This document shows, piece after piece, positions 2,053 through 60,585 of a stretch of DNA of 64,000 bases; the first letter of the stretch is position 1, and each line of letters opens with the position of its first letter. Source of the DNA: an uncultured Clostridium sp. (GTDB lineage: Bacteria; Bacillota; Clostridia; TANB77; CAG-508); the NCBI GenBank assembly GCA_900553985.1, contig USFW01000003.1, positions 31,492-95,491 of the forward strand, read 5' to 3'. The translations under genes were made by a program, and so were the position numbers. Below the pieces are notes generated by a model. It did not search any database. It saw only the letters and a program-made list of their open reading frames with translations, and was not told where the DNA came from.

Positions 2053-2075
2053 TAAGTGAATAAGAAATAAGGAAT

Positions 2076-2447: not shown

Positions 2448-2477
2448 AAGGAGGATGAGTTACAATATTGTTTTCAT

Positions 2478-3134: not shown

Positions 3135-3146
3135 ATGGAGGCACTA

Positions 3147-11084: not shown

Positions 11085-13158
11085 ATATAAGTTAGAAGGA
11101 CTAGATTGTGCAGCCTGTGCTAAAAAAGTTGAAGAAAAATTAGCAAGTACAAGTGGATTTGAAGATGTAAATGTCAATTTTTCAACTTTGAAATTATCAT
11201 TTAAAACAGAAAAATATGAAAATGACAAAAACTTGACCAAAATGGTTGAAGAGATTGTTAAGAAAGTAGAACCAGATGTAAATGTTATAGAAAATTCAAA
11301 TAAAGAAATAAATGAAAAATCAGAACGAAGCAATGTAGATATTATTAGAATTATTATTGGAGTTTTAATTTATTTTATAGGAATGAAATCAAACTTGGAA
11401 AAAGAATTTTCATTAATATTTTTAATTATTTCTTTAATAATATTACTTTATAAAATAGTACCCAAAGCAATAAAACAAATAGTAAAGAATAAATCTTTAG
11501 ATGAAAATGCATTAATAGCAATATCAGCAATAGGTGCATGTTTTGTAGATAAAGCAATGGAAGGAATAATGGTTATAACATTATATGAAATAGGAAAAAT
11601 ATTAGAATCAAAAGCAATAAGCAAAACAAGAAATTCAATTTCAAGTTTAATGGATATAAGACCAGAATATGCAAATATAAAAGATAAAGAAGAAATAAGA
11701 AAAGTAAACCCAGAAGAAGTAAAAATAGGAGATATAATAGTAATAAAAAGTGGAGAAAAAATTCCACTAGATGGAATTATTATAAAAGGAGAAGCAGAAA
11801 TAGATAACTCAGCCTTAACAGGAGAAAGTGAGTTAATAAATGTTAAAGAAGACTCAAAAGTACTATCAGGAGGAATTAATGTTCAAGGATTAATTGAAGT
11901 AAAAGTTGAAAAACTATATGAAGACAGTACAGTAAGTCAAATTTTAAATTTAGTAGAAAATGCAACAGATAAAAAAGCAAAAACAGAAAATTTTGTTTCA
12001 AAAGCTGCAAAAATTTATACACCAATAGTGTTAGGGTTAGCAGTACTTGTAGCAATATTTATGCCAATATTTTTTAAAGGAGTAACATATCAAGAAAGTA
12101 TATATAAAGCATTAATATTTTTAGTAATATCATGTCCTTGCTCAATAGCAATATCAGTACCATTAAGTTATTTTAGTGGAATAGGTAAAGCTTCTAAAAG
12201 AGGAATTTTAGTAAAAGGAAGTGATTACTTAGATGGTTTAAAAGACATTAAACAAATAGTATTTGACAAAACAGGAACAATAACAACAGGAAATTTTAAA
12301 TTAAGTGAAATTAAGTCATTTAATGAAAAATATAATGAAAAAGAAATTTTAAAATACTTTGCAATGGGAGAAAGCTATTCAAATCATCCAATAGCAAAAT
12401 CAATATTAAATGAAGTAAAAAATGAAGATATAGATATAAAACAAGTAAGAGATTTTGAAGAAATTGCAGGTAAAGGTCTAAAATATAAAATACAAGATAA
12501 GGAAATCATTATTGGAAATAAATCAATAATGAATGATAATAAAATCACTTCAAATCAAGAAGAAGGAACTATATTATTTTTAAAAATAAATGACGAAGTA
12601 GTAGGAAGTATTAAATTAATAGACGAAATAAAACCAGATGTAAAAACTACAATGAAAAAGCTAAGTGATTTAGGAATAAAAACTAAAATGTTTACAGGAG
12701 ATAAAAAGGAAATTGCACAAAAAATAGCAAAAGAAGTAGGAATAAAAGAAGTAAAATACGAAATGTTACCACAAAATAAATATGAAGAATTAGAAAAAGT
12801 TTTACAAGGTAAAAAGCCAAGCGAAAAGGTAGCATATGTAGGAGATGGAATTAATGATAGTCCAGTACTAGCAAGAGCAGATATTGGAATATCAATGGGT
12901 GGAGTAGGATCTAGCTCAGCAATAGAAGCCTCAGATATTGTAATAATGACAGACGAATTATCAAAAGTTATAGAAGGTATTGAAATTTCTAAAAAGACTA
13001 ATAAAATAATAATGCAAAATTTAGTTATATCAATAGGAATAAAATTATTGGTTTTTGCATTAACTCTATTTGGACTTTCAGATATGTGGGAAGCAGTATT
13101 TGCAGATGTGGGAGTAACATTAATTACAGTATTTAATACATTGAGAATATTGAAGTAG
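11062..13158 (+). CDS. heavy-metal translocating P1B-type ATPase (CadA/ZntA-like)
   Basis: N-terminal HMA domain with GLDCAACA, TM CPC motif (SCPCSIAIS), DKTGTIT phosphorylation site and GDGINDSP hinge. The true start may be the TTG at 11071. Confidence 0.9.
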   Translation: MNILKSYRYKLEGLDCAACAKKVEEKLASTSGFEDVNVNFSTLKLSFKTEKYENDKNLTKMVEEIVKKVEPDVNVIENSNKEINEKSERSNVDIIRIIIGVLIYFIGMKSNLEKEFSLIFLIISLIILLYKIVPKAIKQIVKNKSLDENALIAISAIGACFVDKAMEGIMVITLYEIGKILESKAISKTRNSISSLMDIRPEYANIKDKEEIRKVNPEEVKIGDIIVIKSGEKIPLDGIIIKGEAEIDNSALTGESELINVKEDSKVLSGGINVQGLIEVKVEKLYEDSTVSQILNLVENATDKKAKTENFVSKAAKIYTPIVLGLAVLVAIFMPIFFKGVTYQESIYKALIFLVISCPCSIAISVPLSYFSGIGKASKRGILVKGSDYLDGLKDIKQIVFDKTGTITTGNFKLSEIKSFNEKYNEKEILKYFAMGESYSNHPIAKSILNEVKNEDIDIKQVRDFEEIAGKGLKYKIQDKEIIIGNKSIMNDNKITSNQEEGTILFLKINDEVVGSIKLIDEIKPDVKTTMKKLSDLGIKTKMFTGDKKEIAQKIAKEVGIKEVKYEMLPQNKYEELEKVLQGKKPSEKVAYVGDGINDSPVLARADIGISMGGVGSSSAIEASDIVIMTDELSKVIEGIEISKKTNKIIMQNLVISIGIKLLVFALTLFGLSDMWEAVFADVGVTLITVFNTLRILK

Positions 13159-16428: not shown

Positions 16429-18360
16429 ATGAAACAAATTAGAGAAAAAAGAGGAATAACACTAATTTCATTGGTGATTACAATTATAGTATTGTTAATA
16501 TTAGCAGGAGTAAGCATAGCAATGTTAACAAGTGATAATGGAATAATAACAAATGCAAAAAAATCAAAAATATCAACAACATTTTCAACATATAAAGAAG
16601 AGGTAGAATTATATAAAAACAATAAAATTGCGGAAAATACAAATTTTTTAGAAAATACACTAGAAGCAAGTAAAATAAGTTTATCATATAATACTAAAAA
16701 AGAAGAGGAAAAAGGAAATATAAAAAGTATAATAACTACTATAAATGACAAAGACTTAGAAAAGTTTGAAATAATAAAAGGAAAATTATTAATTAATACT
16801 AAAGATATAAATGAAATAAAAGTAGCACAAAGTTTAGGAATACAAGTAAATCCGTATGATATAACAGAAGAAGGAGAGCTATTATCATCAGATGGAAATT
16901 TATTACTTGTGGATGAAAATGGATATTTAAAGATTCCAGATAATGTAACAAAAATAGGAGAAGGTGCATTTGCAAATTTGAAAGGACTAAAAACAATTAT
17001 AATACCAGGAAGTGTAAAAGAAATAGGTAAAAATGCATTTACACGAAATTCAGAATTGCAAACAGTTATAATGGAAGAAGGGGTTGAAAGTATTGGACAA
17101 TCAGCATTTTCAGGATGTGAAAAATTAAAAAATGTTTCAATGCCAGAAAGTTTAAAGGAAATGAAGAGTTCAGCTTTTCAAAGTGATCCTACAATAGAAG
17201 AAATACAAATACCATCTAAAATTAGAAAAATAGATGCATATACTTTTTCTGGAAATGCAAAACTAAAAAAAATTATATTACCAGAAAGTTTAGAAATTAT
17301 AAATGTAGGAGCTTTTTCCTATACAGGTTTTGAAGAAATAGTAATTCCTGAAAAAATAAATAAAATTGAAGTAGGTGCATTTGAAGGAAACTTTGAATTA
17401 AATAATATAATAATAAGAGGTGAAAATCCACAATATATATATGAAAATGGAATGTTAATGACAAGAAATAAAGATGATATTTTATTTATATCTGATAAAT
17501 ACTTAAAGACTATAAATACCTTTAAAATTCCTGATGGAATAACAAGATTTAATATAAACTTAAATAAATATACAAATATTACAAAAATAATTATTCCTGA
17601 AAAAATAGAAAATATAGCTGCACATAATTTTCCAGACACAATTAATGAAATAGAATTATCAAATACAAGTAATATATATGATATAAATGAAAGTAAGAAA
17701 ATATTATATAGAAAAGATACAAAAGAAATAATAAATTGTTATTCAAAAGAAGAAAATATAAATTTAAAAGAAGAAGATATTTTAAAAATAGGAAATCATG
17801 CTTTTAAGCAAGCAGTTAATGCCAAAAATATAATATTGCCTGATTCATTAAAAATTATAGGTTCAGAAGCATTTACTAATTGTAAAAAAATTGATGAAAT
17901 AAAAATAGGGGTAAATGTAGATAATATAAATCCACTTTTTAAATATGGAAATTATAGTGGAAAGGTAACAATAGATAAAGGAAACCCTAACTATATTATA
18001 GAAAACGATATTTTATATAATATAAATAAAACTAAATTATATACTGTATTATATAATATAGAAGGAGAATTCTATATTGATGAAAATGTAGAAAAAATTG
18101 ATCAATTAGCATTTCATAATCAATATAGAATGACTAAAGTTAATATACCTAAGAGTGTAAAAGAAATAGAGAATAGTTTTAACTATTGTAATGGATTGAC
18201 AGAAATTAATATTCCTAATACAGTTGAAAAGATTAATAATAGTGCTTTTCAGCAATGCAAAAACCTGAATAGAATTAATATAAACAAAAATAAAGATTCA
18301 ATATCAGGAGCACCATGGGGAGCTATAAAAGGAATGAAAGTTGTAAAATGGAAAGAATAG
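16429..18360 (+). CDS. BspA-type leucine-rich-repeat surface protein with a type IV pilin-like N-terminus
   Basis: N-terminus MKQIREKRG|ITLISLVITIIVLLILAGVSIAML resembles a prepilin leader plus hydrophobic helix, but lacks Glu5. The rest is repeated LRR_5-like units (IP..V..IG..AF..C..L..I). Confidence 0.75.
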   Translation: MKQIREKRGITLISLVITIIVLLILAGVSIAMLTSDNGIITNAKKSKISTTFSTYKEEVELYKNNKIAENTNFLENTLEASKISLSYNTKKEEEKGNIKSIITTINDKDLEKFEIIKGKLLINTKDINEIKVAQSLGIQVNPYDITEEGELLSSDGNLLLVDENGYLKIPDNVTKIGEGAFANLKGLKTIIIPGSVKEIGKNAFTRNSELQTVIMEEGVESIGQSAFSGCEKLKNVSMPESLKEMKSSAFQSDPTIEEIQIPSKIRKIDAYTFSGNAKLKKIILPESLEIINVGAFSYTGFEEIVIPEKINKIEVGAFEGNFELNNIIIRGENPQYIYENGMLMTRNKDDILFISDKYLKTINTFKIPDGITRFNINLNKYTNITKIIIPEKIENIAAHNFPDTINEIELSNTSNIYDINESKKILYRKDTKEIINCYSKEENINLKEEDILKIGNHAFKQAVNAKNIILPDSLKIIGSEAFTNCKKIDEIKIGVNVDNINPLFKYGNYSGKVTIDKGNPNYIIENDILYNINKTKLYTVLYNIEGEFYIDENVEKIDQLAFHNQYRMTKVNIPKSVKEIENSFNYCNGLTEINIPNTVEKINNSAFQQCKNLNRININKNKDSISGAPWGAIKGMKVVKWKE

Positions 18361-29488: not shown

Positions 29489-30454
29489 ATGGCAACAAAT
29501 CCAATGCAAAGAAAAGCAAGAAATTCATTTTTATTAGGAATGTTAGTTATGCTTATAATAACAGGAATAATAATAGCAATTTTATTTATACAATTAACAA
29601 ATATTAAAAAAGCAGAAAAACAAGAAAAATTAGCAATGGTAACAGTTTATACATTAAATAGAGATGTTGATGCAGGAGAAGAAGTAAGTGAAACAGATTT
29701 TACAATTACATCAGTAAATAAGGATATAGCTCCTAAAGATTATTTAACACCAACAGATTTAAAAGAAAAAAATATAGCAAAAATAGCTATGACAGCAGGA
29801 ACAGTTTTATCAAAAGAGATGATTTATGAAGATGAATCAGAACAAGGAAATGATGTAAGAAAACAAGAATATAACATGTTTGTATTACCAACAGACTTAC
29901 AAAATGGTGATTACATAGATATAAGATTAATGTTGCCTTCAGGAACAGATTATATTGTAGCATCTAAAAAGAGAGTTGAAATACCACAAATTGCACAGGT
30001 AGATGCAACTGATACAATTTCAGTTAACTTATCAGAAGAAGAAACATTATTAGTTAGTAATGCAATAATAGATGCTTATAAAATAGTAGGCTCAAAATTA
30101 TATGTTACAAGATATACTGAACCAGGACTTCAAAAAGCTTCAGAACCAACATTCCCAGCTAATAAAGATGTAATGTCTTTAATAAATGCAAATCCAAATA
30201 TTGTGGAAGAGGCAAGACAAGCATTATGGGCAAGATATAATGATGGAGATGGTGTAAACCAAAGAAACAATGTTATAAATTCATCAATAACAAATGCAGG
30301 TGATCAAGCAACACAAAATCTTCAAACAAAAATGGAAGACAGTATTACGAATTCACAAACAAGAAGAAAAGAATATTTAGATTCTTTATCAGCAACAGCA
30401 CCAACTACACCAGAAGCAACAACTACAACTACTACAAATACAACATCAAAATAA
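29489..30454 (+). CDS. CpaB/RcpC-like Flp pilus assembly protein (SAF domain)
   Basis: N-terminal TM helix. SAF-like segment VTVYTLNRDVDAGEEVSETDF. Thr-rich low-complexity C-terminus. Confidence 0.65.
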   Translation: MATNPMQRKARNSFLLGMLVMLIITGIIIAILFIQLTNIKKAEKQEKLAMVTVYTLNRDVDAGEEVSETDFTITSVNKDIAPKDYLTPTDLKEKNIAKIAMTAGTVLSKEMIYEDESEQGNDVRKQEYNMFVLPTDLQNGDYIDIRLMLPSGTDYIVASKKRVEIPQIAQVDATDTISVNLSEEETLLVSNAIIDAYKIVGSKLYVTRYTEPGLQKASEPTFPANKDVMSLINANPNIVEEARQALWARYNDGDGVNQRNNVINSSITNAGDQATQNLQTKMEDSITNSQTRRKEYLDSLSATAPTTPEATTTTTTNTTSK

Positions 30455-30469
30455 AAGAAAGGAATTAAT

Positions 30470-31168
30470 ATGAAAAAGATAGGATTTATAGGAGCGTATG
30501 ATAAAACAGATTTGCTATTAAATTTAGCCAAGATATTAACAGTAATGAATAATAGGGTATTAATAATAGATTCAAGTTTGATGCAAAAAGCCAAATATGT
30601 TGTACCTGTTATAAATCCTACTGTTACATATATAACAACATTTGAAGATTTCGATGTTGCAGTTGGATTTAACAGCTTAAAACAAATAAAAGGATATTTA
30701 GGATATTCTGAAAACGAAGATCTACCATATGATATTGTTTTGGTGGATTCAGATACAGAAGAAAGCATAGAAAATTTTGAGTTAATAAATGCAGAAAAAA
30801 ATTATTTTGTAACAGCTTTTGACTTATATTCATTAAAAAAAGGACTAGAGATATTAAGTGGGCTAAGAGAACCAATGGCTTTAACAAAAATATTATTTTC
30901 AAAAGATATGACAAAAGAAGAAGATGATTATTTGAATTTTTTGTCACTAGGATATAAAGCATTGTGGAATGATTATAGAATATATTTTATATTAAATGAA
31001 GAAGATACAAATGCATTAATAGAAAATCAGAGAGTTTCAAAAATAAGATTTAAAAAAATAAGTTCACAATATAAGGATAGTTTGATATATATAGTTCAAG
31101 AAATATTAAAAGATACAAGTGAAAGTAATATTAGAAAAGTTGTTAAAATAATAGAAAGAGGAGTATAA
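30470..31168 (+). CDS. ParA/MinD-fold protein with degenerate P-loop (TadZ/CpaE-like)
   Basis: MKKIGFIGAYDKTD occupies the Walker A position but has no GKT/S. A later VLVDSD Walker B-like strand is present. Confidence 0.5.
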   Translation: MKKIGFIGAYDKTDLLLNLAKILTVMNNRVLIIDSSLMQKAKYVVPVINPTVTYITTFEDFDVAVGFNSLKQIKGYLGYSENEDLPYDIVLVDSDTEESIENFELINAEKNYFVTAFDLYSLKKGLEILSGLREPMALTKILFSKDMTKEEDDYLNFLSLGYKALWNDYRIYFILNEEDTNALIENQRVSKIRFKKISSQYKDSLIYIVQEILKDTSESNIRKVVKIIERGV

Positions 31169-31169
31169 T

Positions 31170-32018
31170 ATGTCAATTGTAACATTTTACAATAATAATA
31201 TAGAACAGACTGGAAAAACAATGTCAATAACAGCAATTGCTACATTTATGTCAATTGAACATAATTACAGAATTCTTATAATATCTACAACAAATAAAGA
31301 AGATAATTTAAAAAATTGTTTTTGGGAAGAAAAGAAAAAAAGAAGAAATTTAGGAATATTTGGACCAAATGCAAATCTTGAAGTACAAAATGGTGTAGAA
31401 GGGTTAACAAGAATAATTAGAAGCAATAAAATAACACCAGATATAATTACAAATTATACAAAAGTTGTGTTTAAAGATAGACTAGAAGTTTTATTAGGAA
31501 GTAATCAAGTTGAGCGTAATAGTCCAGAATTGCAAAATATAGAAAAAACATATCCAGAAATAATAAAATCAGCAAATAAATATTATGATTTAGTATTTGT
31601 AGATTTAGATGAAAATGTAGATGAAGAAACAAAAACTTCAATATTAGATATGTCAGACGTAACAGTGGTTAACTTGAGTCAAAGATTAAGAAGTATAAAT
31701 AAATTTGCTGAAACTAAAGTAAATACAAATAGATTGAAAGATAGAAAAAAATTAATTTTAATAGGAAGATATGATAAGTATTCAAAATATAATTCTAAGA
31801 ATATAACTAGATATTTAGGAGAAAAAAATCAAGTATTGACAGTACCATATAATACATTATTTATGGAAGCTAGTGAAGAAGCTGGAGTACCAGATTTATT
31901 TTTGAGATTCAGAAAAATGGCAGAGACAGAAGATGTTAATGGATTTTTTATATCAGAGATAAGAAGAGCTAGTGAAAATATAATTTATAGATTACAAGAT
32001 TTACAAATGAAATTGTAA
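31170..32018 (+). CDS. ParA/MinD-fold protein (TadZ/CpaE-like), deviant P-loop
   Basis: FYNNNIEQTGKTMS (partial Walker A) and LVFVDLDE (Walker B-like). Start is 2 nt after the upstream stop. Confidence 0.5.
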   Translation: MSIVTFYNNNIEQTGKTMSITAIATFMSIEHNYRILIISTTNKEDNLKNCFWEEKKKRRNLGIFGPNANLEVQNGVEGLTRIIRSNKITPDIITNYTKVVFKDRLEVLLGSNQVERNSPELQNIEKTYPEIIKSANKYYDLVFVDLDENVDEETKTSILDMSDVTVVNLSQRLRSINKFAETKVNTNRLKDRKKLILIGRYDKYSKYNSKNITRYLGEKNQVLTVPYNTLFMEASEEAGVPDLFLRFRKMAETEDVNGFFISEIRRASENIIYRLQDLQMKL

Positions 32019-32035
32019 AAGAAAGGAGACCTTAA

Positions 32036-33982
32036 ATGACTATAACAAATATAATATTATCTCTAATTGTATTACTAATAACAGCATTTGCAGTATATTA
32101 TTTCATTAAAAAGAAAAAAGAAGAACCAGTAGAAGAAACAATAAATGTGGATGATAAAACATATACATTGGATGCAATGAGAGATTTTGTAAAGAGAAGA
32201 TTAGATGAAATAACAAAAGTCAATTTATATGATATAGGTCTTTCAGAAGAAGAATTAAAAAGAAGAAAAAATAAAAAATATGAGCTAAAAAAAGCATTAA
32301 AAGGATGTACATATGGAGATGTTAATGATAAAAAATATGTTAAGGAATTAATATATGATTTATTAGCACAAGAATATGGAGTTGATGAAACAAATATATC
32401 TAAAGCAATACCATTTGATATTCCATCACTTCTAACTGCTAGAGACAAATTTGATATTTTAATATATGTATATAAAAAAGAATTTGGATACGAAGCTTTA
32501 ACAGAAATGATAAAAAAATATGATTTAGCTGAGTTAAAATATATAGAAGGAGAAACAAAACCTTCATATGTAATTACTGAACAAGAAATTGAAGATATAT
32601 ATGAAAAGGAAAATATAACATTAACATTTGCAGATAAATTAGCAATAGTAGTACAAAGAATTTATCAACATTATAAAGGATATAGTTCAATTGATGAAGT
32701 AAGAGATATGAATATAGATGGAGTTTCTGGAGGAGTATCAGGTCTGCCAGAAAGTTTTTTAAGTCAAGTAGCACAAACAGATGGAGATTATTTAAATCAA
32801 ATAGCAGAACATAAAGTACCAAGAGCTTGTGATAGCATATGGATATTCTTCCAAGGTAAATCTATAAGATTAGCATTCTTATCATTTGAAACAGAAGCTG
32901 AGTTAAAAAGAGTATGTCAAAATATATATAAATACAATAACCCAGGACAATTATCAGACACAAATGGATATAAAATTAATGAAATGAAAGACGGTTCTCG
33001 TGTTGTTGTAGTAAGACCAAGTTTCTCAGAAACATGGGCATTTTTTGTAAGAAAATTCGATGTTAAAAGAGCAACTTTAGAACAATTAGTAAGGGATCCA
33101 GGAAAAGAAGATGCAATACAATTGTTAAAATTTCTAGTAAAAGGAGCAAGGATTACTTCAATAACAGGAGAGCAAGGTTCGGGTAAAACAACACTATTAA
33201 TGGGAATGATAGAAAATATATATGAAACAATGAATATAAGGGTTCAAGAAACAGCATTCGAGTTACATTTAAGAAAAATATATCCAACAAGAAATATTTT
33301 AACATTCCGTGAAACAGACACAATTTCAGGACAAGAAGGTTTAGATGTTCAAAAGAAAACGGATGGTTCTGTAAATATCATTGGAGAGGTTGCAACAGAC
33401 CCTGTAGCATCTTGGATGATACAAGCAGCCCAAGTAGCATCTAAATTCACATTATTTACTCACCATGCTAAAACATTTCCAAACTTAGTAACAGCATTAA
33501 GAAACTCAATGTTAAGAACAGGAGTATTCACAGACGAAAAAACAGCAGAAGAACAAGTTGTACAAGTTTTAAATTTTGACATTCACCAAGTAAAAGATTT
33601 TAGAGGAAAAAGATATATAGAAAGAATTACAGAATGTATACCAGTAGAAGACAAAAATGAATATACATTTGACCATAGAAAAGAAAAAACATTAGAAGGA
33701 AAATTTGATAAGTTTTTTGATAATGCAACACATTTTTTTACAAAAACAACAGATAAACAATTATATACATATAGAAACATAATGGAATATATTGATGGAG
33801 AATATGTAATAACAAATCCAATAACAGATGAAAATATAAAAGAAATGAGAAATAATATGGATGAAACAGATGTAGAAGCATTTGATAAATTTATAGAAAA
33901 ACATTGGGCAAAAAAATCAAATGAAACAGTAAATAGTGAAGCAGAAAAACCAAAAAGAGGAAGAAAAGCAAAACAATCATAG
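32036..33982 (+). CDS. CpaF/TadA-family secretion ATPase with an N-terminal TM anchor
   Basis: Walker A GEQGSGKTTLL. Downstream ETAFEL and IIGEV...THHA boxes sit in the positions of the Asp and His boxes of VirB11/CpaF ATPases. N-terminal hydrophobic helix ILSLIVLLITAFAVYYF. Confidence 0.7.
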   Translation: MTITNIILSLIVLLITAFAVYYFIKKKKEEPVEETINVDDKTYTLDAMRDFVKRRLDEITKVNLYDIGLSEEELKRRKNKKYELKKALKGCTYGDVNDKKYVKELIYDLLAQEYGVDETNISKAIPFDIPSLLTARDKFDILIYVYKKEFGYEALTEMIKKYDLAELKYIEGETKPSYVITEQEIEDIYEKENITLTFADKLAIVVQRIYQHYKGYSSIDEVRDMNIDGVSGGVSGLPESFLSQVAQTDGDYLNQIAEHKVPRACDSIWIFFQGKSIRLAFLSFETEAELKRVCQNIYKYNNPGQLSDTNGYKINEMKDGSRVVVVRPSFSETWAFFVRKFDVKRATLEQLVRDPGKEDAIQLLKFLVKGARITSITGEQGSGKTTLLMGMIENIYETMNIRVQETAFELHLRKIYPTRNILTFRETDTISGQEGLDVQKKTDGSVNIIGEVATDPVASWMIQAAQVASKFTLFTHHAKTFPNLVTALRNSMLRTGVFTDEKTAEEQVVQVLNFDIHQVKDFRGKRYIERITECIPVEDKNEYTFDHRKEKTLEGKFDKFFDNATHFFTKTTDKQLYTYRNIMEYIDGEYVITNPITDENIKEMRNNMDETDVEAFDKFIEKHWAKKSNETVNSEAEKPKRGRKAKQS

Positions 33983-34018
33983 TATCATGATAAAGCTAAA
34001 AGGAGGTGCGATATAAGA

Positions 34019-36097
34019 GTGTCTAATCAAATAATATTTTACATAATGGGTGGAGCAGCAGGACTATTAGTAATAATGATAATTGCATATTTTATATTAG
34101 CAAAGAGAATGCAAAAATCAGAATATAGACAGATAAAAAGACTACAGCAAGGCACAAAAGAAAAATCATTTTCTTCAGAAGTTCTTTTTCAAAAACTATA
34201 TATAATGTATGTAAGAGTTCCATTCTTAAAAAGATATATATTAAAATTGCGTAGAAGATTAGAGATTATAAATATTGATGATGAGTATAGCACAAGAAGA
34301 GATTCAGCAAAAATTTTAACTAAAGCACTAGCCTTAATTATACCAATAGTTATTGTGACAATTTTACTAACAAAAAGTAATTATCTAATAATGACAATAT
34401 TACTTATATTTGAATTATTCATGATAGATACATTAATAGATGGATCAGTAGATAAAAAAGATTCAATGCTATTAAAAGAACAATTAGATTTCTTTTCTGA
34501 AATAAGACATGCATATCACGAATTTAATATGGTAGAAGAAGCAATATATCAAGTATCACAAGATGACGAAATGGATGTATCAAGGCAAGGAGAAAAAATC
34601 TATGAAATATTAATTTCTGATGATCCAGAAATGGAATTAGAAAAATATTATGATATAGCACCAAATATATTCTTAAAAGAATTTGCGGGAGTATCATATT
34701 TAACAAAAGAATTTGGTGATAGAAAAGTAGATGGTGCATCATTGTACTTAAAAAATATAAATAACATATCAAAAGAAATGCAATTGGAAATTTTAAAAAG
34801 GGATAAGCTAAACTATGTATTTCAAAGCTTATCACTAATTGCAATAACACCAATATTATTACTAGAGCCATTAAAAAACTGGTCAATATCAAACTTCTCA
34901 TTTACAGCAAGTTGGTATAATGGAAAACCAGGAATGATAGTTCAAATACTAATATTAATCTTAACATTTATATCATATACCTTGGTAAGAAGATTAAAAG
35001 ATAATGGTTCAACAGGAATAAATACAAAAAATACAGAAAATCCATGGCAAGCAAAATTATATAAAAACAAAATAATAAAAAAAATTGTTGACTTATTTAT
35101 CCCAAAAGAAGGAACAAAAGAATACAGAAAAGTACAACAACAATTAAAAGATGCCGCATCACATTTAAAGATGGAATGGTTATATATAAATAGAATAACT
35201 TTGGCAATAACCACTTGTGTTGTGTCAATAATAGTATTTACATATTTGCATAAATTAGCTATAGACTATGTATACACAGAACCAACTACAAGTTATAATC
35301 TGATGGGAGAACTAGACGAAAAAGATAAAGCAAAAGCTATGGAAATAACAGAACAAGACAATATAATATTAAATATGTTTAGAGGAAAGTTGGATACAAC
35401 AGAAAAGCAAATTCAAATAGAAGTAAAAAGACAAAAGTTTTATGAAGATGCAGAAGATAAAGAGATAGAAGTAGCAGTAGAAAGAATTTATAAAAAATTA
35501 AAAATTGTAAATAGTGAATATATAAAATGGTTTGAAATATTATTATCTTTTGTATTTGCAATAATAGGATATATGGCACCAATGGCATTACTTATGTTCC
35601 AAATAAAAATGAGACAAATAGAAATGGAAGATGAGGTAATGCAGTTTCAAACAATAATTTTAATGTTAATGCAAATTGAAAGGGTAAATGTTGAAATTAT
35701 ATTGGAATGGCTAGAAAGGTATGCAAATATCTTTAAAGAACCAATATCAAAATGTGTAAATAACTATGAATCAGGAGCATGGGAAGCTTTAGAGGAAATG
35801 AAAGAAGAAGTAAGTTATATGCCACTAGTAAGAATCATAGAAAGCTTGCAAGCAGCAGTAGAAAAAATTCCTATCAAAGATGCCTTTGATGAATTAGACT
35901 CTGAAAGAGACTACTATCAAGAAAAAAGAAAAGAATCGAATGATAGATTAATAAAAAGAAAAGGTATGATAGGAAAAGCAATAGGATTCGCACCGATGGT
36001 ATGTATGTTTGTTGGATATTTAATTGTACCATTAGTATTCATAGGATTAACAAGTATGTCAGATACAATGGCAGGAATGATGTCACAAACGATGTAA
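34019..36097 (+). CDS. polytopic membrane protein, TadB/TadC (GspF-like) platform candidate
   Basis: 692 aa with multiple TM helices. The C-terminal part (ESGAWEALEEMKEEVSYMPLVRIIESLQAAVEKIPIKDAFDELD) resembles the T2SS-F repeat. Confidence 0.55.
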   Translation: MSNQIIFYIMGGAAGLLVIMIIAYFILAKRMQKSEYRQIKRLQQGTKEKSFSSEVLFQKLYIMYVRVPFLKRYILKLRRRLEIINIDDEYSTRRDSAKILTKALALIIPIVIVTILLTKSNYLIMTILLIFELFMIDTLIDGSVDKKDSMLLKEQLDFFSEIRHAYHEFNMVEEAIYQVSQDDEMDVSRQGEKIYEILISDDPEMELEKYYDIAPNIFLKEFAGVSYLTKEFGDRKVDGASLYLKNINNISKEMQLEILKRDKLNYVFQSLSLIAITPILLLEPLKNWSISNFSFTASWYNGKPGMIVQILILILTFISYTLVRRLKDNGSTGINTKNTENPWQAKLYKNKIIKKIVDLFIPKEGTKEYRKVQQQLKDAASHLKMEWLYINRITLAITTCVVSIIVFTYLHKLAIDYVYTEPTTSYNLMGELDEKDKAKAMEITEQDNIILNMFRGKLDTTEKQIQIEVKRQKFYEDAEDKEIEVAVERIYKKLKIVNSEYIKWFEILLSFVFAIIGYMAPMALLMFQIKMRQIEMEDEVMQFQTIILMLMQIERVNVEIILEWLERYANIFKEPISKCVNNYESGAWEALEEMKEEVSYMPLVRIIESLQAAVEKIPIKDAFDELDSERDYYQEKRKESNDRLIKRKGMIGKAIGFAPMVCMFVGYLIVPLVFIGLTSMSDTMAGMMSQTM

Positions 36098-36112
36098 AGG
36101 AGATGAAGTTTA

Positions 36113-36826
36113 ATGGAGAATGCATCAAAAGCATTAATAATAGCAGGTAGTGTGTTATTAGCACTAATAGTAATTGGTGCATTCATGTTAATGTTATCGA
36201 ATCTTACTGATTATAAGGATAAAAATGATACAAGAGTACAACAACAACAAATAGTCGAATTTAATAATCAATTTTCAACATATGATAGAATAGGTCTAAG
36301 AGGAACTGATATGCTATCTTTAATGAATAGAATAATAGACTATAATGTAAGAAAAACAGCAGAAGAAGTAGGTTTTCAAAAGATGAAAATGACTATAAAG
36401 GGAATTGATAAAAATATACTACAAGCAGTGAGATATGAGCCATCAGGACCAAACTTATTAATAAAGAAAAATGCTTATACGCAAGAAGATTTATCAGAAA
36501 TAGTAACAAAACCTCAAAATTTAGAAAATAAATATCAGAAAAAATATATTACACAATTAGTAAGTAACGTTTCATCTTTTATGGATATTTATAGCAGTAG
36601 TTTATCAATAAATCAAAAGATACAAGAAATAAATGATAAAAAATGGTTGCCCAAAAGTATAACAACATATGGGAGCTTAGATAGTGTGAAAAATGACATT
36701 TTAATATATTATGAGTATTCACAATTTAAGAGAACATACTTTGATTCTACAGGAGAGACTAAATATGATAAAAATACAGGAAGAATTACGGAAATGAATT
36801 TTAATTGTGTAGGAATAGGAGAGTAA
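36113..36826 (+). CDS. pilin-like protein, MENASKAL class (237 aa)
   Basis: N-terminus MENASKALIIAGSVLLALIVIGAFMLMLS. One of four paralogous N-termini in the locus. Confidence 0.6.
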   Translation: MENASKALIIAGSVLLALIVIGAFMLMLSNLTDYKDKNDTRVQQQQIVEFNNQFSTYDRIGLRGTDMLSLMNRIIDYNVRKTAEEVGFQKMKMTIKGIDKNILQAVRYEPSGPNLLIKKNAYTQEDLSEIVTKPQNLENKYQKKYITQLVSNVSSFMDIYSSSLSINQKIQEINDKKWLPKSITTYGSLDSVKNDILIYYEYSQFKRTYFDSTGETKYDKNTGRITEMNFNCVGIGE

Positions 36827-36827
36827 T

Positions 36828-37316
36828 ATGGAGAATGCATCAAAAGCATTATTAATGGCAGCAGGCGTACTAATTGGGGTATTGATATTATCTTTAGCAG
36901 TATTTTTATTTGTGAATTTTGGAGGAACATCAGCTAGGATACATGATACAGTACAAAAAAACCAATTAGCTAAATTTAATACACAATTCACTAATTATGA
37001 AACAAAAGAAAGTGTAACAATTTATGATATTGTTTCAGTAGCTAATTTAGCAACTGAAAATAATAGAGAAAATCAATTACAAAAGAAAACAGCATCAACT
37101 AATGGAATAGATAATTATATAACTGTAAAATTAAAAGGAAGATGTATAGAAGGTGGAGAAAACACAGATATAAAGCAACTAGAGGATGATTATAATAAAA
37201 AAATAATAGAAGATATCAATAGACAAAATAATGGAGAATTAAAAAAATATAAAGCAAAGACATATGTAAGTACAGAAACGGGCAGAGTTTATTTAATAGA
37301 ATTTAGTGAAATTTAA
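36828..37316 (+). CDS. pilin-like protein, MENASKAL class (162 aa)
   Basis: N-terminus MENASKALLMAAGVLIGVLILSLAVFLFV. Confidence 0.6.
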   Translation: MENASKALLMAAGVLIGVLILSLAVFLFVNFGGTSARIHDTVQKNQLAKFNTQFTNYETKESVTIYDIVSVANLATENNRENQLQKKTASTNGIDNYITVKLKGRCIEGGENTDIKQLEDDYNKKIIEDINRQNNGELKKYKAKTYVSTETGRVYLIEFSEI

Positions 37317-37357
37317 TAAAAAAATTTTATATATGGAATATATTAGACAGGTGAAAA

Positions 37358-37789
37358 ATGAAGAAATTTATAATTTTTTTAGTAGTTATTTTAATGATAA
37401 TTGCAACAATATCATATCTTTATTTGAATTATAAAGCTAATTACAACATAGCCCAAAAAGAAAATTTTCAATTTGAAAGTTACTATAATCAAGAAATATT
37501 TGGACCAGATGTTGCAACTGTAATAAATAAAGCAATTGATAAAAATTCAAACAACAATATAAAGAAAGATAATAAAGGCAATTACATAGAAGATAATACT
37601 AATTCGATAAAAATAGATATAAAATTTATAGATGATGATAAAATACACAACATGGAAGAAATCTTTAACAAAGGTATAGGCACATTTATGCAATATTATA
37701 GCCAGATAAAATTCAAATGCACAAAAATTGATTATCATAAATCTAGTAAAAAAGTTAAATATATGTTATTTGAACAAATAACAAAATAA
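37358..37789 (+). CDS. small N-terminally anchored protein of the pilus locus
   Basis: MKKFIIFLVVILMIIATISYLYL anchor followed by a polar domain. Confidence 0.5.
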   Translation: MKKFIIFLVVILMIIATISYLYLNYKANYNIAQKENFQFESYYNQEIFGPDVATVINKAIDKNSNNNIKKDNKGNYIEDNTNSIKIDIKFIDDDKIHNMEEIFNKGIGTFMQYYSQIKFKCTKIDYHKSSKKVKYMLFEQITK

Positions 37790-37859
37790 TAAAGTTATTT
37801 AAGTTACTAAAGAAATTTAGTATATATAGCAAAAGTAAAATTTAAAGGAGGAATTTTTT

Positions 37860-38282
37860 ATGGAAAATGCATCAAAAGCATTAATTATTGCAGGAGCAAT
37901 ACTATTAGCAATTTTAATTATAACATTAGGAATTGTAATTTACAATCAAGCACAAGGAGTAGTAAATAATAGTTCGATGAATCAAGTTGAAGTAACACAA
38001 TTTAATACACAATTTACACAATATGAAGGTAAACAAAGAGGTTCAGTTGTAAAATCTCTATTCCAAACAGTATTAGCAAATAATGTATCACAAGATAGTG
38101 AGGATAGACAAGTTAAAATTGAATGTACAGTAACAGGAAATTTAGAAAAAAATGCTACATCATTACCTGCAAATATGTCAAAAATAGCAACAGGTGCATC
38201 ATATGAAATAAGTATTAAATATGGTACAGGTAAAGGTAATGCTGGATTGGTTGATGTAATTACAGTTGCACCAGCAAATTAA
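37860..38282 (+). CDS. pilin-like protein, MENASKAL class (140 aa); major subunit candidate
   Basis: N-terminus MENASKALIIAGAILLAILIITLGIVIY. Strongest SD in the locus (AAAGGAGGA), preceded by a 70-nt spacer, and the smallest globular domain. Confidence 0.6.
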   Translation: MENASKALIIAGAILLAILIITLGIVIYNQAQGVVNNSSMNQVEVTQFNTQFTQYEGKQRGSVVKSLFQTVLANNVSQDSEDRQVKIECTVTGNLEKNATSLPANMSKIATGASYEISIKYGTGKGNAGLVDVITVAPAN

Positions 38283-38308
38283 AAAGTACAAAGAAAGGAT
38301 GATATATT

Positions 38309-38950
38309 ATGGAAAATGCAGCAGACGCATTAAAAATGGCAGCAGCCGTATTAGCTTTTGTTCTAGCATTAGGAATTAGTATGTCATCTTTTTCCGAAGT
38401 TAGAGAAGTTTCTGAAATAATTTTAAATTATAAAGACAAAGAATATAATTACAATTATATTCCAGAAAATGGAGATACTACTAGAAAAGTAAGTGTAGAG
38501 ACAATAGTTCAAGCAATTTATAGAGCGTACAATGAAAATTATAAAATTTATTTTTATGAAAATGGTAATGAATCAGACCCATTAACTATATTTCAAAAAG
38601 GAACAAATCAAAAAGAAGAAATTAATTATATTGATTTAAGAGGACAAGCACTAGTAAGTGTTGAAAAGAGAAATCAGTTTATAGGTTGCATTTTATATGG
38701 AAGTTCATATAGAGATCCTAATGGAAAATCATTTAATGATATAAAAAATGAATTTAAAGAACTAGGAATTATATTGCAAGATCAAGGATTATATGATAAA
38801 ATATTAAGTAGTGGAGGAGCTGAAGAAAAATTTGGAGTGTATTATGAAGATGATGAGATAGTAGATAACTCAAATCCAGATGATTCTGAATCAAACGTAC
38901 CACAAGCAAACAGAGTAAAGAAAAGGGTTATTACATATATTTTGCAATAA
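38309..38950 (+). CDS. pilin-like protein, MENAADAL variant (213 aa)
   Basis: N-terminus MENAADALKMAAAVLAFVLALGISM. Confidence 0.55.
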   Translation: MENAADALKMAAAVLAFVLALGISMSSFSEVREVSEIILNYKDKEYNYNYIPENGDTTRKVSVETIVQAIYRAYNENYKIYFYENGNESDPLTIFQKGTNQKEEINYIDLRGQALVSVEKRNQFIGCILYGSSYRDPNGKSFNDIKNEFKELGIILQDQGLYDKILSSGGAEEKFGVYYEDDEIVDNSNPDDSESNVPQANRVKKRVITYILQ

Positions 38951-38985
38951 TAAAAAGGAGAATTTATTATTAGAAGGAGGAAGTT

Positions 38986-39519
38986 ATGGGAGATTCATTG
39001 ATAACAATAATTGCAATAATTTTAGCAGCAGTTTTAATGTTTGTATTTCCATTAATGACTATGTCGGATAGAACAGATGATGTTACACAACTAGCAGTAA
39101 AAACAGCTACAACTGATTTTGTAGACACAGTAAGAACAACAGGAAAATTAACATCAGATAATTACAGTAAATTCGTAGAAAGTATTAATTCAACAGGAAA
39201 TACATATGATGTAGAAATGGAAGTAAAAGTTCTAGATGAAAATCCAGGAAAGAAAACATCACAAACAGCAACAGAAAAAATAGGTGAAAATGTATATTAT
39301 TCAATGTATACATCACAAATTCTAGAAGCATTAGGAAAAAATAATAATAATGCAGTATTAGCACTTAAAGAAGGTGATTATTTCATAGCAAGTGTAAAAA
39401 ACACTAATACAACATTATCACAACAACTAAAGAACTTTTTCTATACAGTAACAGGAAACGACACTTATACTATTGCAGCATCACATGGAGGAATAGTATC
39501 AACTAATGGAGTAAAATAA
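38986..39519 (+). CDS. N-terminally anchored pseudopilin-like protein (TadE-like position)
   Basis: MGDSLITIIAIILAAVLMFVFPLMTM hydrophobic N-terminus followed by a beta-rich domain. Confidence 0.5.
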   Translation: MGDSLITIIAIILAAVLMFVFPLMTMSDRTDDVTQLAVKTATTDFVDTVRTTGKLTSDNYSKFVESINSTGNTYDVEMEVKVLDENPGKKTSQTATEKIGENVYYSMYTSQILEALGKNNNNAVLALKEGDYFIASVKNTNTTLSQQLKNFFYTVTGNDTYTIAASHGGIVSTNGVK

Positions 39520-39539
39520 TGCTAGAAAAATAGAATTTT

Positions 39540-39571
39540 AAGGGGCGTCATATAAAATTACGTCCTTTTTT
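39540..39571 (+). terminator. internal terminator in the pilus locus
   Basis: AAGGGGCGT / ACGTCCTTT stem (with G-U pairs) and a T-run. Confidence 0.5.
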
Positions 39572-39604
39572 CAAATTTTAAATATAAACGAAGGAAATAA
39601 ATTT

Positions 39605-41224
39605 ATGAAAATACAATATTTAGCAGTAATTTTTATAATCATAATATTACCAATATCACTAATATTATCAGCCTATACTCAAAATCATATATCAACATTA
39701 AATTTACAAGAACTATATGATTCAAAACTTGATACAGCAACATACGATGCGGTAAAAGCTTTTCAATTAAATACTATAAATAATAGTACATCAGACATAC
39801 AAAATTCAAAAATTAGAGATATAGAAGCAGCAGTAAATACTTTTTTCAATTCAATAGCATCTAATTTTAATATGGTAGGATACAATAGTGATGTATTAAA
39901 TAAATATGTACCAGCATTAGTATTTACAATGTATGATGGTATATATATATATACATCATACACAAACGATTTAAGTGATGTTAAACAAGGCGAAAACTCA
40001 ACATATAAAGATGGAGAAAACTTAGCTGGATTAAAACCATATATTTTTTATAGTTGTAGGTATAAAACAGGTGCAACTGATGTAGTAATAACATATTCCT
40101 TAGACAATTACATACAAATTGATGGAAAAGTTAACAGTGAATATATTCATAAAGATGGATATTTATATAATCCAAGTGACATTCAAATAAATGGAAACAA
40201 TGTAACATATAGAGGAATACCAATAAACCAAGAAGAAGCATTAAAAGAAATATTACCAGATGGAAATGAATATACATATTTAAAATTAAATGGAGTAAAA
40301 TACTATAAAGATATAAATTCAGATAAATGGTTTTCTATATTAAATGGACAAAAAAAGCTACAAGGAAAATTTTCATCAAAATATGAAACTACAAATGACT
40401 TAGCAATAAAATTCTTTAAAGAAGCCAAAGAATTTAGCGATTGGTTCTATAATCAATCAGGACTTAGTGATTTAAAAGCTTCAAATGCAGTAGATGAAAA
40501 GGGACAACCACTAAAAAAATTAGTGGATGAGAGAACTTCAGTAGTGTATGAATTCGCATCAAATCAAAGAATTTTTGATAATAGTGGACATATAGAAGAT
40601 CCAGCTTCACAATTTAATAACCACAGATTGGCAGTAATAAGATATACAATAGAAAAAAATCTATCAATAGCAATAGCAAACTACAATAACTTTACACAAG
40701 GAGCATCGATAAATTTTCAAATGCCAAATTTAACAGAAGAAGAATGGGCACAAATAATGAATAATATGTCAATGATAAGCTTTTTGGAAGGTTTAAGTAT
40801 TGGTGGTAAAGTTTATAATGGATATTCAATTATAAATAATAACAAAAATCAAGAAGTTGTATCAGAAAATTCAATATATATTGTAGGAAATGATAATAAT
40901 TATCATATGGTAACAGATAAAGATTTAGTAACTATGATTACACCAGAAGTAGGTTATTTAAACATAGACTTTGAGAGAAAAAGTATAATAGGAATAGAAG
41001 ATACTACAAAATATTATTATCCAAGAAGAGAATTGGGATGCTATGGAAGCATAGTTGCTCATACTAATTTAGATGTAGAATCTGATAGTATATATGAATA
41101 TTTAGGAAAATCTACTAATAATAAAGTAGCAAGTGTATATTATACGGCTTTGGCAAGAGAAAGATATAGTAGCTATAAGGCAAGTAGGACATATGATACT
41201 TATACAGAGCAATTTAAGGAATAA
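39605..41224 (+). CDS. large N-terminally anchored protein (539 aa), pilus-associated or tip candidate
   Basis: MKIQYLAVIFIIIILPISLILSAY anchor followed by about 510 aa of extracytoplasmic sequence. Last gene of the cluster. Confidence 0.5.
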   Translation: MKIQYLAVIFIIIILPISLILSAYTQNHISTLNLQELYDSKLDTATYDAVKAFQLNTINNSTSDIQNSKIRDIEAAVNTFFNSIASNFNMVGYNSDVLNKYVPALVFTMYDGIYIYTSYTNDLSDVKQGENSTYKDGENLAGLKPYIFYSCRYKTGATDVVITYSLDNYIQIDGKVNSEYIHKDGYLYNPSDIQINGNNVTYRGIPINQEEALKEILPDGNEYTYLKLNGVKYYKDINSDKWFSILNGQKKLQGKFSSKYETTNDLAIKFFKEAKEFSDWFYNQSGLSDLKASNAVDEKGQPLKKLVDERTSVVYEFASNQRIFDNSGHIEDPASQFNNHRLAVIRYTIEKNLSIAIANYNNFTQGASINFQMPNLTEEEWAQIMNNMSMISFLEGLSIGGKVYNGYSIINNNKNQEVVSENSIYIVGNDNNYHMVTDKDLVTMITPEVGYLNIDFERKSIIGIEDTTKYYYPRRELGCYGSIVAHTNLDVESDSIYEYLGKSTNNKVASVYYTALARERYSSYKASRTYDTYTEQFKE

Positions 41225-59430: not shown

Positions 59431-60585
59431 ATGAAAAAACTAAAAAAAGAAAATAAAGTTAAAATTGAAAGAAAAAATGAGATTGGAATTACATTAATAG
59501 CATTAGTAATTACAATTATTGTATTATTAATTTTAACAGGAGTATCAATAGCGATGCTAACAGGGGATAATGGAATATTAAAACAAGCAACTGAAGCTAA
59601 AGTACAAACAGATATAGGAGAACAAACAGAAAAAATAAAATTAGCAGTAACAGATGCTAAAATAACAAACGAAGAGTATCAAGAGTTAAATTTTGAAAAT
59701 TTACGAAATGCAATAGCTAAACAATTTGGAAATGTGGCAGAAGTAACAGCCAATGCAGATGGAACATTTTTAGTAAAAATTAGGGATAGAACTTATAATA
59801 TTTTTTCTGATGGAACAGTATATTTAAAAGATCCAAGTAATTTTGCTAGTTTAATAACTCCACAAAACTATGGAGAAAAAGTAAAATATAGTGCTAATGG
59901 AGTAACTGATTGGAAAATTTTTTATAATGACGGAAATAATGTATTTTTAATTGCATCTGATTATTTAGAAAATACAAAGATACCTTCTGATTTAGGGATT
60001 GTAGGAGAAGGAACATATAAGGTTAGTTGGAACGAATTGATATATAGTGGAGCAGAAGATGTGAAACAAGAAATAGCTAATAAATATAAGTTAAAATGTT
60101 ATCCGGACAATAAAAATAGTATGAAGGCAGTAGCTAGTTTAATGGATATAGAAAAGTGGAAGGTTTTCGTAGACACTAATGTAGCAGATTCTGCTATTGG
60201 CAGTCCAACAATAGAAATGTTTTGTGATAGTTGGAATCAAAAAGGATATACACAATTATATTGTAATAATTATGATAGTAGAGGATATTTTGTAGGGGGG
60301 AATGACAAACCATCTACTATGAAATATGATATTTCAAGTAATGCTGGATATAATGATAAATTATATTATCCACATAAGGAATTAACGGAAGATGGATGTA
60401 TGGGATATTTTTTAGCTTCAACAGTAGCTAATGATAGTGGAAATTTAATGAGAATTAGTTCAGCAGGAAATATAAATTATAGGCATCAAAGTGTTGCACT
60501 TGAAGGATTACGTCCAGTCGTATGTTTGAAAACTTCAATAAATGGTGAATGGGATAAGAATAAAAATGAATGGATATTAAAATAA
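59431..60585 (+). CDS. secreted/anchored protein with a type IV pilin-like N-terminus, unknown C-terminal domain
   Basis: ...ERKNEIG|ITLIALVITIIVLLILTGVSIAMLTGDNGIL is nearly identical to the N-terminus of ORF 16429. The C-terminal ~330 aa are unrelated to that protein. Confidence 0.7.
   Translation: MKKLKKENKVKIERKNEIGITLIALVITIIVLLILTGVSIAMLTGDNGILKQATEAKVQTDIGEQTEKIKLAVTDAKITNEEYQELNFENLRNAIAKQFGNVAEVTANADGTFLVKIRDRTYNIFSDGTVYLKDPSNFASLITPQNYGEKVKYSANGVTDWKIFYNDGNNVFLIASDYLENTKIPSDLGIVGEGTYKVSWNELIYSGAEDVKQEIANKYKLKCYPDNKNSMKAVASLMDIEKWKVFVDTNVADSAIGSPTIEMFCDSWNQKGYTQLYCNNYDSRGYFVGGNDKPSTMKYDISSNAGYNDKLYYPHKELTEDGCMGYFLASTVANDSGNLMRISSAGNINYRHQSVALEGLRPVVCLKTSINGEWDKNKNEWILK

Follow-up and report, generated by a model that had tools for sequence, protein, structure and literature searches.

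Leaderless pilin-like proteins encoded beside a CpaF-like ATPase in gut Clostridia and on Firmicutes megaplasmids: candidate subunits of a possible Tad-like filament system

Introduction

The prepilin-peptidase step is treated as universal and ancestral for pili, Tad, Com, the type II secretion system (T2SS) and archaella, and a family of subunits that does without a peptidase would change this view. The closest described systems are the Tad/Flp pili of Caulobacter (CpaA-H, PilA) and Aggregatibacter (Flp1/TadV) and the archaeal pilins of Sulfolobus (AapA/B, UpsA) and Haloferax (PilA1-6), which are substrates of PibD. Clostridial tad-like loci without a class III signal peptide protein have been reported in C. 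kluyveri, C. cellulolyticum, C. bolteae and D. hafniense (Imam et al. 2011; PMC3244431). Here we analyse a stretch of 64,000 nucleotides, denoted the window, from an uncultured gut Clostridium sp. (contig USFW01000003.1, positions 31,492 to 95,491), which has a G+C content of ~25% and encodes spoIVB, spoVG and a probable sigH, features that identify the source as a spore-forming Firmicute of low G+C. It contains four paralogous genes for pilin-like proteins starting with M-E-N-A (MENA proteins), located in one operon with a CpaF-like ATPase. The explanation to which we lean, tentatively, is that the MENA proteins are filament subunits used without prepilin-peptidase cleavage and built by a diverged Tad-type machine.

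Results

The MENA genes and their conservation in the gut lineage

An initial annotation of the window had listed four open reading frames (ORFs) with a common start, which we confirmed on the + strand. The ORFs at 36113, 36828, 37860 and 38309 encode, in this order, the N-terminal sequences MENASKALIIAGSVLL, MENASKALLMAAGVLI, MENASKALIIAGAILL and MENAADALKMAAAVLA, all of the form M-E-N-A-x-x-A-L followed by a hydrophobic helix that comprises residues 8-28 by hydropathy. The motif has no further occurrence in the six-frame translation of the window. Shine-Dalgarno (SD)-like sites are found 5' of the four ATG codons (AAGGAG, GGAG, AAGGAGG and AAGGA), and an N-terminal extension is impossible because the nearest in-frame stops lie only 2, 3, 7 and 2 codons upstream. 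The further observation of the annotation, that a basic leader and a glycine at position -1 are both absent, holds for these four genes as well as for the 280 lineage ORFs and the 148 family N-termini described below. Its statement that the C-terminal domains differ completely was too strong: paralogues 1-3 are homologous over ~100-145 residues (E ~1e-12), and paralogue 4 matches paralogue 2 over ~79 residues (E 3e-4).

For a comparison within the lineage, 80 loci were fetched from the >471 found in a scan with one genome per species. Their hosts are all metagenome-assembled genomes of uncultured gut Clostridia (human, chicken, rabbit, sheep and mouse), Clostridium sp. CAG:389 and CAG:575 included. 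The operon is syntenic in ~60-78 of the 80 species-level genomes, often adjoining spoIVB, and the four MENA genes correspond to four orthogroups; paralogue 1 is present in 76 loci (median length 243 amino acids (aa), ~37% identity), paralogue 2 in 76 (~46% identity) and paralogue 4 in 78. Identity within the lineage amounts to ~83% for the ATPase, ~76% for the large membrane protein and 37-49% for the MENA proteins, the first 28 residues of which are almost invariant, also between paralogues. Judged from these alignments, a helix this conserved joined to a head that evolves fast is what is classically seen in pilins.

The model of paralogue 3 calculated with AlphaFold2 (AF2; predicted local distance difference test score, pLDDT, 87) contains a helix at residues 2-38 and another at residues 42-53, followed by an alpha/beta domain; the linker from helix to domain, residues 31-40, is of low confidence. 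The pilin hallmark of a conserved N-terminal hydrophobic helix and a variable globular domain is accordingly seen in hydropathy, AF2 model and conservation alike. Paralogue 3 has 7,020 homologues at 90% clustering, none of them named and none with a Pfam domain, and 117 of the top 120 start with MENASKALI. It is also the nearest of the four to the one pilin-like gene that the plasmid operons described below contain, being homologous to the plasmid proteins with E values down to 6e-10. Paralogue 3 is the probable major subunit, the other three MENA proteins being minor ones.

The 80 loci contain 280 MENA-type ORFs, in which M1, E2 and A7 never vary and N3, A4, L8 and A11 hardly do; position 6 is K, D, E or R, and A7 is followed by L or I. 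An SD-like site precedes 274 of the 280, with an in-frame stop usually 0-8 codons upstream. Codons 2, 3, 4, 7 and 8 vary synonymously (GAA 172/GAG 108; AAT 236/AAC 42), and selection therefore acts at the protein level. The Glu2 codon is GAG in 39% of the 280 genes, compared with 15% for Glu elsewhere in the same genes, an excess that may be an effect of the translation-initiation region. The number of MENA-type ORFs differs between fetched loci, from 1 to 6 (some loci end at contig edges), so that the set of paralogues appears to be still evolving.

N-terminal sequences in the wider family

A profile search run exhaustively over 1.84 billion representatives (clusters at 50% identity) yielded 6,921 clusters at E <= 1e-3 and 3,650 at E <= 1e-10. 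The pilin-like family is thus large, and it is unannotated. Profile position 1 aligns to residues 1-3 in most of the best 150 matches. We read 148 N-termini from the best of the 6,921 clusters; 90 of the family representatives belong to other, non-MENASKAL subfamilies. A long basic leader or a G/FTLxE motif (here and below, a slash marks an actual or potential junction before the helix) was found in none of the 148, and the general N-terminus is M-[E/D/S]-N-x-x-K-x, followed by the helix. As far as these sequences go, lacking a class III leader characterises the family in its entirety and not just the four genes.

The pilin-like proteins encoded on plasmids start with MSTNASKA/L, MEESTNTG/L, MESPVVKA/I, MGENARKA/L, MGGSLSEG/L, MGENGRKG/L, MDSPVVKK/I, MDSVTKA/I, MKESTSTA/L, MNNASSA/L and MDDNATKG/L, with in-frame stops 0-22 codons upstream; further relatives start with MSAVGNNSSEG/LKF, MPGQSSSEG/LKF and MSNPQKA/LL. 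In the 280 lineage proteins, residues 1-10 have a net side-chain charge of 0 (214 proteins), -1 (53) or -2 (13), and the first 10 residues are neutral in 57 of the 90 other representatives. A short neutral N-terminus with one interface Lys/Arg is, on this sequence evidence, a general feature of the family. The suggestion that Glu2 stands in for the Glu5 of pilins found no family-wide support in the comparison: the acid is located at position 2 or 3 or is absent in relatives (MSTNASKAL, MNNASSAL, MSNAQKAL), and E/D occupies position 2 in only 56 of the 90 other-subfamily representatives. Nor is there a Glu or Asp at +5, this position being S/A/V/T if the protein is unprocessed and Gly12 if it is cut after A7.

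Retention or removal of the N-terminal segment

Nothing can precede Met1, but an internal K/D-A/L junction exists. MENAx[KDE]A could be a very short, non-basic class III signal peptide that is cut between Ala7 and Leu8 by a peptidase encoded elsewhere or unrecognised, leaving a mature N-terminus LIIAGAILL..., fully hydrophobic and without Glu5, as in many archaeal pilins. We regard such clipping as improbable, though to be taken seriously. It finds support in the residues at positions 6 to 8 of the 280 lineage proteins, which resemble the processing sites predicted with FlaFind for characterised archaeal pilins (DA/VS, KA/IS, RA/LS and RA/VS; PMC4371748, Table 1), in the A or G that precedes L/I in 11 of the 12 first pilin-like genes of the plasmid operons and the window, and in the length of the pre-helix segment, which at 7 to 11 residues is variable as leaders are. 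Moreover, Tad is thought to be derived from archaeal pili, and tadV is sometimes encoded apart (PMC6668835). The initial annotation had dismissed cleavage after K-A since paralogue 4 has D-A at this position, an argument that fails in view of the archaeal DA/VS.

Other features of the N-terminus speak against a cut. The residue before the helix is not G, A or S in ~40% of the 90 other-subfamily representatives (approximate automatic count), but V, I, M, F, L, T or P, or K in the C. argentinense type; clear examples of a bulky residue at -1 are MENATKVL, MENSLKML, MENVTKIV and MENGLKVV. Such variability is at odds with the specificity of A24 peptidases. Furthermore, where -2 is acidic, K/R stands at +2 in 53 of 62 proteins of the lineage and in 8 of 9 of the plasmid type, with one further T/R case; where -2 is K, the +2 residue is hydrophobic. 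In the paralogue 4 type an acid at position 6 goes with a base at position 9. This covariation straddles the proposed cut and, as an i/i+3 helical pair, would have no obvious sense unless the two residues remained on a single helix; after a cut, the mature protein of many relatives would carry K/R at +2. The putative leader is not basic, and its invariant M-E-N-A and its length, fixed within the gut lineage in four anciently diverged paralogue groups with barely alignable heads, would be unusual for a discarded peptide. Taken together, the variable -1 residues and the covariation across the junction suggest that cleavage after K-A is less likely. Cleavage of MENASKA by signal peptidase I (A-x-A) was considered and rejected: the site lies on the cytoplasmic side of the helix, and relatives carry R or N at -3.

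We also searched for the enzyme itself. A motif scan for ORFs of the A24-type peptidase pattern GxGD-K, covering the window and 93 related loci (together 1.68 Mb; the remaining genome was not searched), found none, which likewise argues against clipping, and no prepilin peptidase is annotated in the 11 plasmid loci. The operon contains no Flp-type ORF (G/xxxxEY).

Canonical prepilin-type N-termini do occur elsewhere in the window, in the two proteins encoded at 16429-18360 (+) and 59431-60585 (+). The strongly basic leaders of these proteins (charge ~+3 to +5) end in Gly, the N-termini being MKQIREKRG/ITLISLVITIIVLL and ...ERKNEIG/ITLIALVITIIVLL, with Ser/Ala, not Glu, at +5. The protein at 16429 is an adhesin of 643 aa with BspA-type leucine-rich repeats (LRR_5 E 9e-66) and has a weak PpdD-type match.

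Composition of the operon

The MENA genes lie within a 12-gene, co-directional and tightly packed operon at 29489-41224 (+), the members of which are given in the table.

Table. Genes of the operon containing the MENA genes (window positions)
Positions	Strand	Product	Length (aa)	Remarks
29489..30454	+	SAF-domain single-pass membrane protein, CpaB/RcpC-like		first operon gene
30470..31168	+	cytoplasmic conserved protein	232	no known family
31170..32018	+	cytoplasmic conserved protein, weakly ParA/MinD-like	282	TadZ/CpaE position
32036..33982	+	secretion-type ATPase, CpaF/TadA-like	648	T2SSE; N-terminal transmembrane helix
34019..36097	+	all-helical membrane protein	692	~8 transmembrane helices (hydropathy)
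36113..36826	+	MENA pilin-like paralogue 1	237	
36828..37316	+	MENA pilin-like paralogue 2	162	
37358..37789	+	protein with N-terminus MKK + hydrophobic	143	ordinary signal anchor or signal peptide
37860..38282	+	MENA pilin-like paralogue 3	140	SD strongest of the four (AAGGAGG)
38309..38950	+	MENA pilin-like paralogue 4	213	subtype MENA[AV][DE]AL[KQH]MAA
38986..39519	+	protein with MGD[ST]LIT + hydrophobic helix	177	conserved Pro22
39605..41224	+	protein with N-terminal hydrophobic segment	539	last operon gene

The ATPase matches Pfam T2SSE above the cut-off (E 8e-7). In the PDB it matches CpaF and nothing else (8rkd and 9e24; E 1.5e-10 over residues 269-539, which include the Walker A sequence GSGKTT), and its best NCBIfam match, below the cut-off, is the TadA family conjugal transfer-associated ATPase (9e-9). 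Its N-terminal transmembrane helix (residues 6-24, MTITNIILSLIVLLITAFAVYYFIKKKKEE) is kept across the gut lineage, and the homologue on the T. composti plasmid has none; the CpaF/TadA ATPases that have been characterised are soluble. The product of the first gene matches Pfam SAF with E 4.3e-4, at the cut-off, and has CpaB (TIGR03177; E 1.4e-8, residues 18-118, below the cut-off) as its best NCBIfam match. The SAF gene is found in 62 of the 80 lineage loci, and 9 of the 11 plasmid loci have a gene annotated 'SAF domain-containing protein'.

Two cytoplasmic proteins are encoded between the SAF protein and the ATPase. For the 232-aa protein, neither Pfam nor PDB gave a match; it is present in 63 of the 80 loci with ~61% identity, and also in most plasmid operons. 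The window copy of the 282-aa protein has no Pfam or PDB match either, while 3 of 18 family members match AAA_31 (5.5e-4) and CbiA (2.2e-3), the T. composti orthologue is annotated ParA, and the C. botulinum plasmid version of the operon has a clear CbiA/ParA protein upstream. A comparison of the ParA-like family with Rhizobium CpaE by hhalign gave no signal.

The 692-aa membrane protein has the position and the combined size of TadB and TadC, and shares 22-37% identity with its plasmid homologues. Scans of Pfam and NCBIfam assigned it to no family. Its AF2 model, calculated from a shallow alignment, is unusable (pLDDT 48). Among 20 homologues, down to 22% identity, only ten columns are invariant, two of which are G233 and D234 in the sequence EFGDRK (residues 231-236). 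We considered a hidden A24-like peptidase at this site and rejected it: EFGDRK is not GxGD-K and lies in a non-hydrophobic stretch.

Three further proteins with an N-terminal anchor complete the operon. The 143-aa gene, which sits among the MENA genes, and the 539-aa gene are found in 77 and 75 of the 80 loci, respectively, and the products of both are without a family match in Pfam and NCBIfam. The 308-366-aa gene that follows the orf177-like gene in plasmid operons mostly has a similar hydrophobic N-terminus and is likened to the 539-aa gene by position. The 177-aa protein (38986; MGDSLITIIAI...) represents a second type of leaderless, N-terminally anchored protein; it has no family beyond a faint DUF4320 signal, and homologues occur in 11 of 11 plasmid operons (E 1e-7 to 2e-24). 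In loci L078, L049, L038 and L061 of the lineage the orf177-type gene is duplicated in tandem (~11100-12200 in each).

The adjacent spoIVB could suggest a sporulation (SpoIIIA-like) role of the operon. We rejected this idea, as the plasmid relatives lack such a context and the gene content is Tad-like.

A separate arrangement is found at 1468-3767 (+) of the window, where a SipW/archaeal-type signal peptidase I (2076-2447; TIGR02228 E 6e-23) lies between three secreted proteins of ~200 aa. These have no family match, and the arrangement is reminiscent of SipW-TasA/camelysin fibre loci.

Relatives on Firmicutes megaplasmids

A tblastn search of plasmids with the ATPase revealed full-length homologues on 34 plasmids, with 36-59% identity over >80-90% of the length. 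Their hosts are Thermobacillus, Cohnella, Paenibacillus, Sporosarcina, Alkalihalophilus, Cytobacillus, Lysinibacillus, Butyrivibrio, C. botulinum, C. argentinense and C. beijerinckii, and the carriers include pTHECO01, pBsph/pSSII-1, pBpOF4-01, pCY186, pCY360, C. botulinum pFWSKR40E1 and C. argentinense pRSJ17_1. In the eleven plasmid loci read in detail the order is, with minor variations, SAF, one or two small proteins, ATPase and a ~680-aa membrane protein, followed by one pilin-like gene (137-162 aa) and usually a second small helix-first protein; a cell-wall hydrolase gene takes the place of the latter on the plasmids of C. botulinum and C. beijerinckii. Further 3' are an orf177-like protein with the conserved Pro and then a ~310-366-aa protein. 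The small proteins of these operons are all annotated 'hypothetical'.

The plasmid operons are often succeeded by SLH or cell-wall-binding, giant DUF5704, and GGDEF and HD genes, and genes for a T4 coupling protein, a replication-relaxation protein/relaxase and cell-wall hydrolases lie near several of them (e.g. locus L081, 1-5000 and 19069-25800). Plasmids of the pBsph type are experimentally conjugative (PMC13239906). The plasmid operon may be a conjugation-linked surface-structure module under the control of cyclic di-GMP.

This gene neighbourhood, together with the demonstrated conjugation, also lends itself to a different explanation, in which the MENA proteins would not polymerise at all. 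They could be membrane-resident, single-pass scaffolds or adaptors of an envelope-spanning transfer or secretion apparatus, like the VirB8-type proteins of Gram-positive conjugation systems or like PilN/PilO, with the conserved helix docking onto the 692-aa membrane protein; we judge this unlikely. The N-termini do resemble ordinary short-tailed signal anchors, the proteins match no pilin family, and the low confidence of linker residues 31-40 in the AF2 model is in line with a scaffold. Furthermore, Foldseek matched the 140-aa model solely to NTF2-like folds, the class to which VirB8 belongs, albeit far from significantly (E 1.2-5, probability <= 0.1, template-modelling score ~0.3). Against a scaffold stands the pattern of conservation, which is highest in the helix and the 7-residue tail, even when paralogues are compared, while the external domains evolve fast, as in pilins, and the small-residue motifs A7, A11, G12, S/G22 and G24 are typical of tightly packed helices. 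General scans, which were not aimed specifically at VirB4, found no coupling protein, relaxase or VirB4 near the chromosomal operon. In addition, a CpaF-type motor and a CpaB-like protein are present, and there is no alternative filament subunit in the operon.

A tentative filament model

In the model towards which we incline, the four MENA proteins would form a surface or wall-spanning filament, with the 37860 product as the major subunit and the other three as minor ones. Assembly would be carried out by a very diverged Tad-type (type IVc-like) machine encoded directly upstream and consisting of the CpaB-like SAF protein, the two small cytoplasmic proteins, the membrane-anchored CpaF-like ATPase and the 692-aa polytopic protein as its putative platform. 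The subunit would be inserted with its 6-7-residue N-terminus in the cytoplasm and its variable domain outside. Having no basic leader, it would probably remain uncut by a prepilin peptidase, unlike all characterised type IV pilins, and the charge-balanced N-terminus (Glu2/Lys6 or Glu2/Asp6/Lys9) would be retained on the helix and enter the core of the filament with it. Subunit packing as well as recognition by the machine would fall to the nearly invariant helix (residues 8-28). That the operon holds no other candidate subunit gene speaks in favour of this model. The pilin-like character proposed in the initial annotation is borne out in so far as the anatomy and the gene context fit, with a conserved helix and several paralogues placed after an ATPase and a membrane protein; the role assigned to Glu2 and the match to known pilins are not.

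A number of results weigh against the model. The MENA proteins do not match the pilin families in Pfam and NCBIfam even at E <= 1, and 23 diverse family members have no pilin family match at E <= 0.1. A PDB profile search with paralogue 3 gave no matches, and a Foldseek search of its AF2 model against the PDB nothing with E < 1. The supposed kinship to known pilins therefore finds no counterpart in sequence or fold among Flp, TadE, N_methyl, archaeal pilins, Class_IIIsignal and T2SSG. The putative platform is similarly isolated: Pfam scans detected no T2SSF domain in the 692-aa protein and 44 homologues, hhalign of the family against Rhizobium TadB and TadC gave probabilities < 1%, and PDB profile searches with the protein returned no matches. 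Polymerisation of the MENA proteins into a filament by an ATPase and a platform is suggested by gene adjacency to the CpaF-like ATPase. If polar or charged residues stay at the helix tip, the filament core would have to bury them. The invariant Ala7 followed by L/I, with K/D/E/R at position 6, is like the predicted archaeal KA/IS, RA/LS and DA/VS.

The peptidase adds to these points. The claim of a missing peptidase stands for the window and the 93 related loci; the two canonical prepilin-type N-termini at 16429 and 59431, however, imply that a conventional peptidase is probably encoded elsewhere in the genome, a point that also favours the clipping explanation. The enzyme is regarded as core and ancestral, all characterised type IV filament subunits are processed, and loci without a peptidase of their own, such as MSH, borrow one from another system (PMC6668835).

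Discussion

The literature searched contained no description of leaderless pilins, of the MENASKAL motif or of pilus genes of these plasmids. It is conceivable, although we have more doubt than confidence on this point, that the family constitutes an unannotated branch of type IV filaments with at least 6,900 clusters, characterised by ready-made leaderless pilins, no prepilin peptidase, a CpaF-like motor and a non-T2SSF platform. As a type IV/Tad-like filament system it would have a real, though less than even, chance of being independent of the peptidase. If this reading is true, the family would be fixed in a gut Clostridia lineage and carried by megaplasmids of Bacillales and Clostridia, some of them conjugative, where it would perhaps be the long-missing mating pilus of Gram-positive conjugation; it would also be explained why PilFind and FlaFind miss the family. 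The plasmid version could be the structure for adhesion or mating in conjugation systems commonly described as pilus-free. Gut metagenomes of humans and animals contain the family in abundance, and it also occurs on plasmids with medical or applied relevance, among them those of C. botulinum, C. argentinense (the type G toxin strain) and L. sphaericus (pBsph). Several of the plasmid hosts are cultured and genetically tractable, which makes the question directly testable.

Tad/Flp shares several features with the window operon. The ATPase is closest to CpaF and the TadA family, the first gene is SAF/CpaB-like, a weakly ParA-like protein occupies the TadZ position, and the order cpaB, cpaE, cpaF, tadB, tadC is matched by position; both have small helix-first proteins and several paralogous subunits. 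Among the Tad models of Pfam and NCBIfam, only T2SSE reaches its cut-off in the window operon. In contrast to Tad/Flp, the window operon is without a Flp motif (G/xTAIEYG), a leader or TadV, its subunits carry globular domains of 110-210 aa where Flp pilins are ~50 aa long, its membrane protein has no detectable T2SSF, and its ATPase has an N-terminal transmembrane helix.

Archaeal pilins likewise have a charged residue and Ala before an L/I/V helix, need no Glu at +5, and consist of a helix followed by a separate globular domain. Their leaders are longer, however, and normally basic, and a PibD/FlaK peptidase is encoded in the genome; the MENA pre-helix segment consists of 7 residues, is neutral or acidic and invariant, and a bulky -1 residue is common in the wider family. 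The clostridial loci of Imam et al. resemble the window operon in being distant from other tad genes and in having no prepilin motif (PMC3244431), but were reported with a recognisable tadC and tadV, neither of which is found in the window operon. The plasmid operons, relatives themselves without characterised function, are true homologues with the same gene order and the same short, non-basic N-termini; they carry a single pilin-like gene with an N-terminal segment of 7-11 aa, and the window has four such genes.

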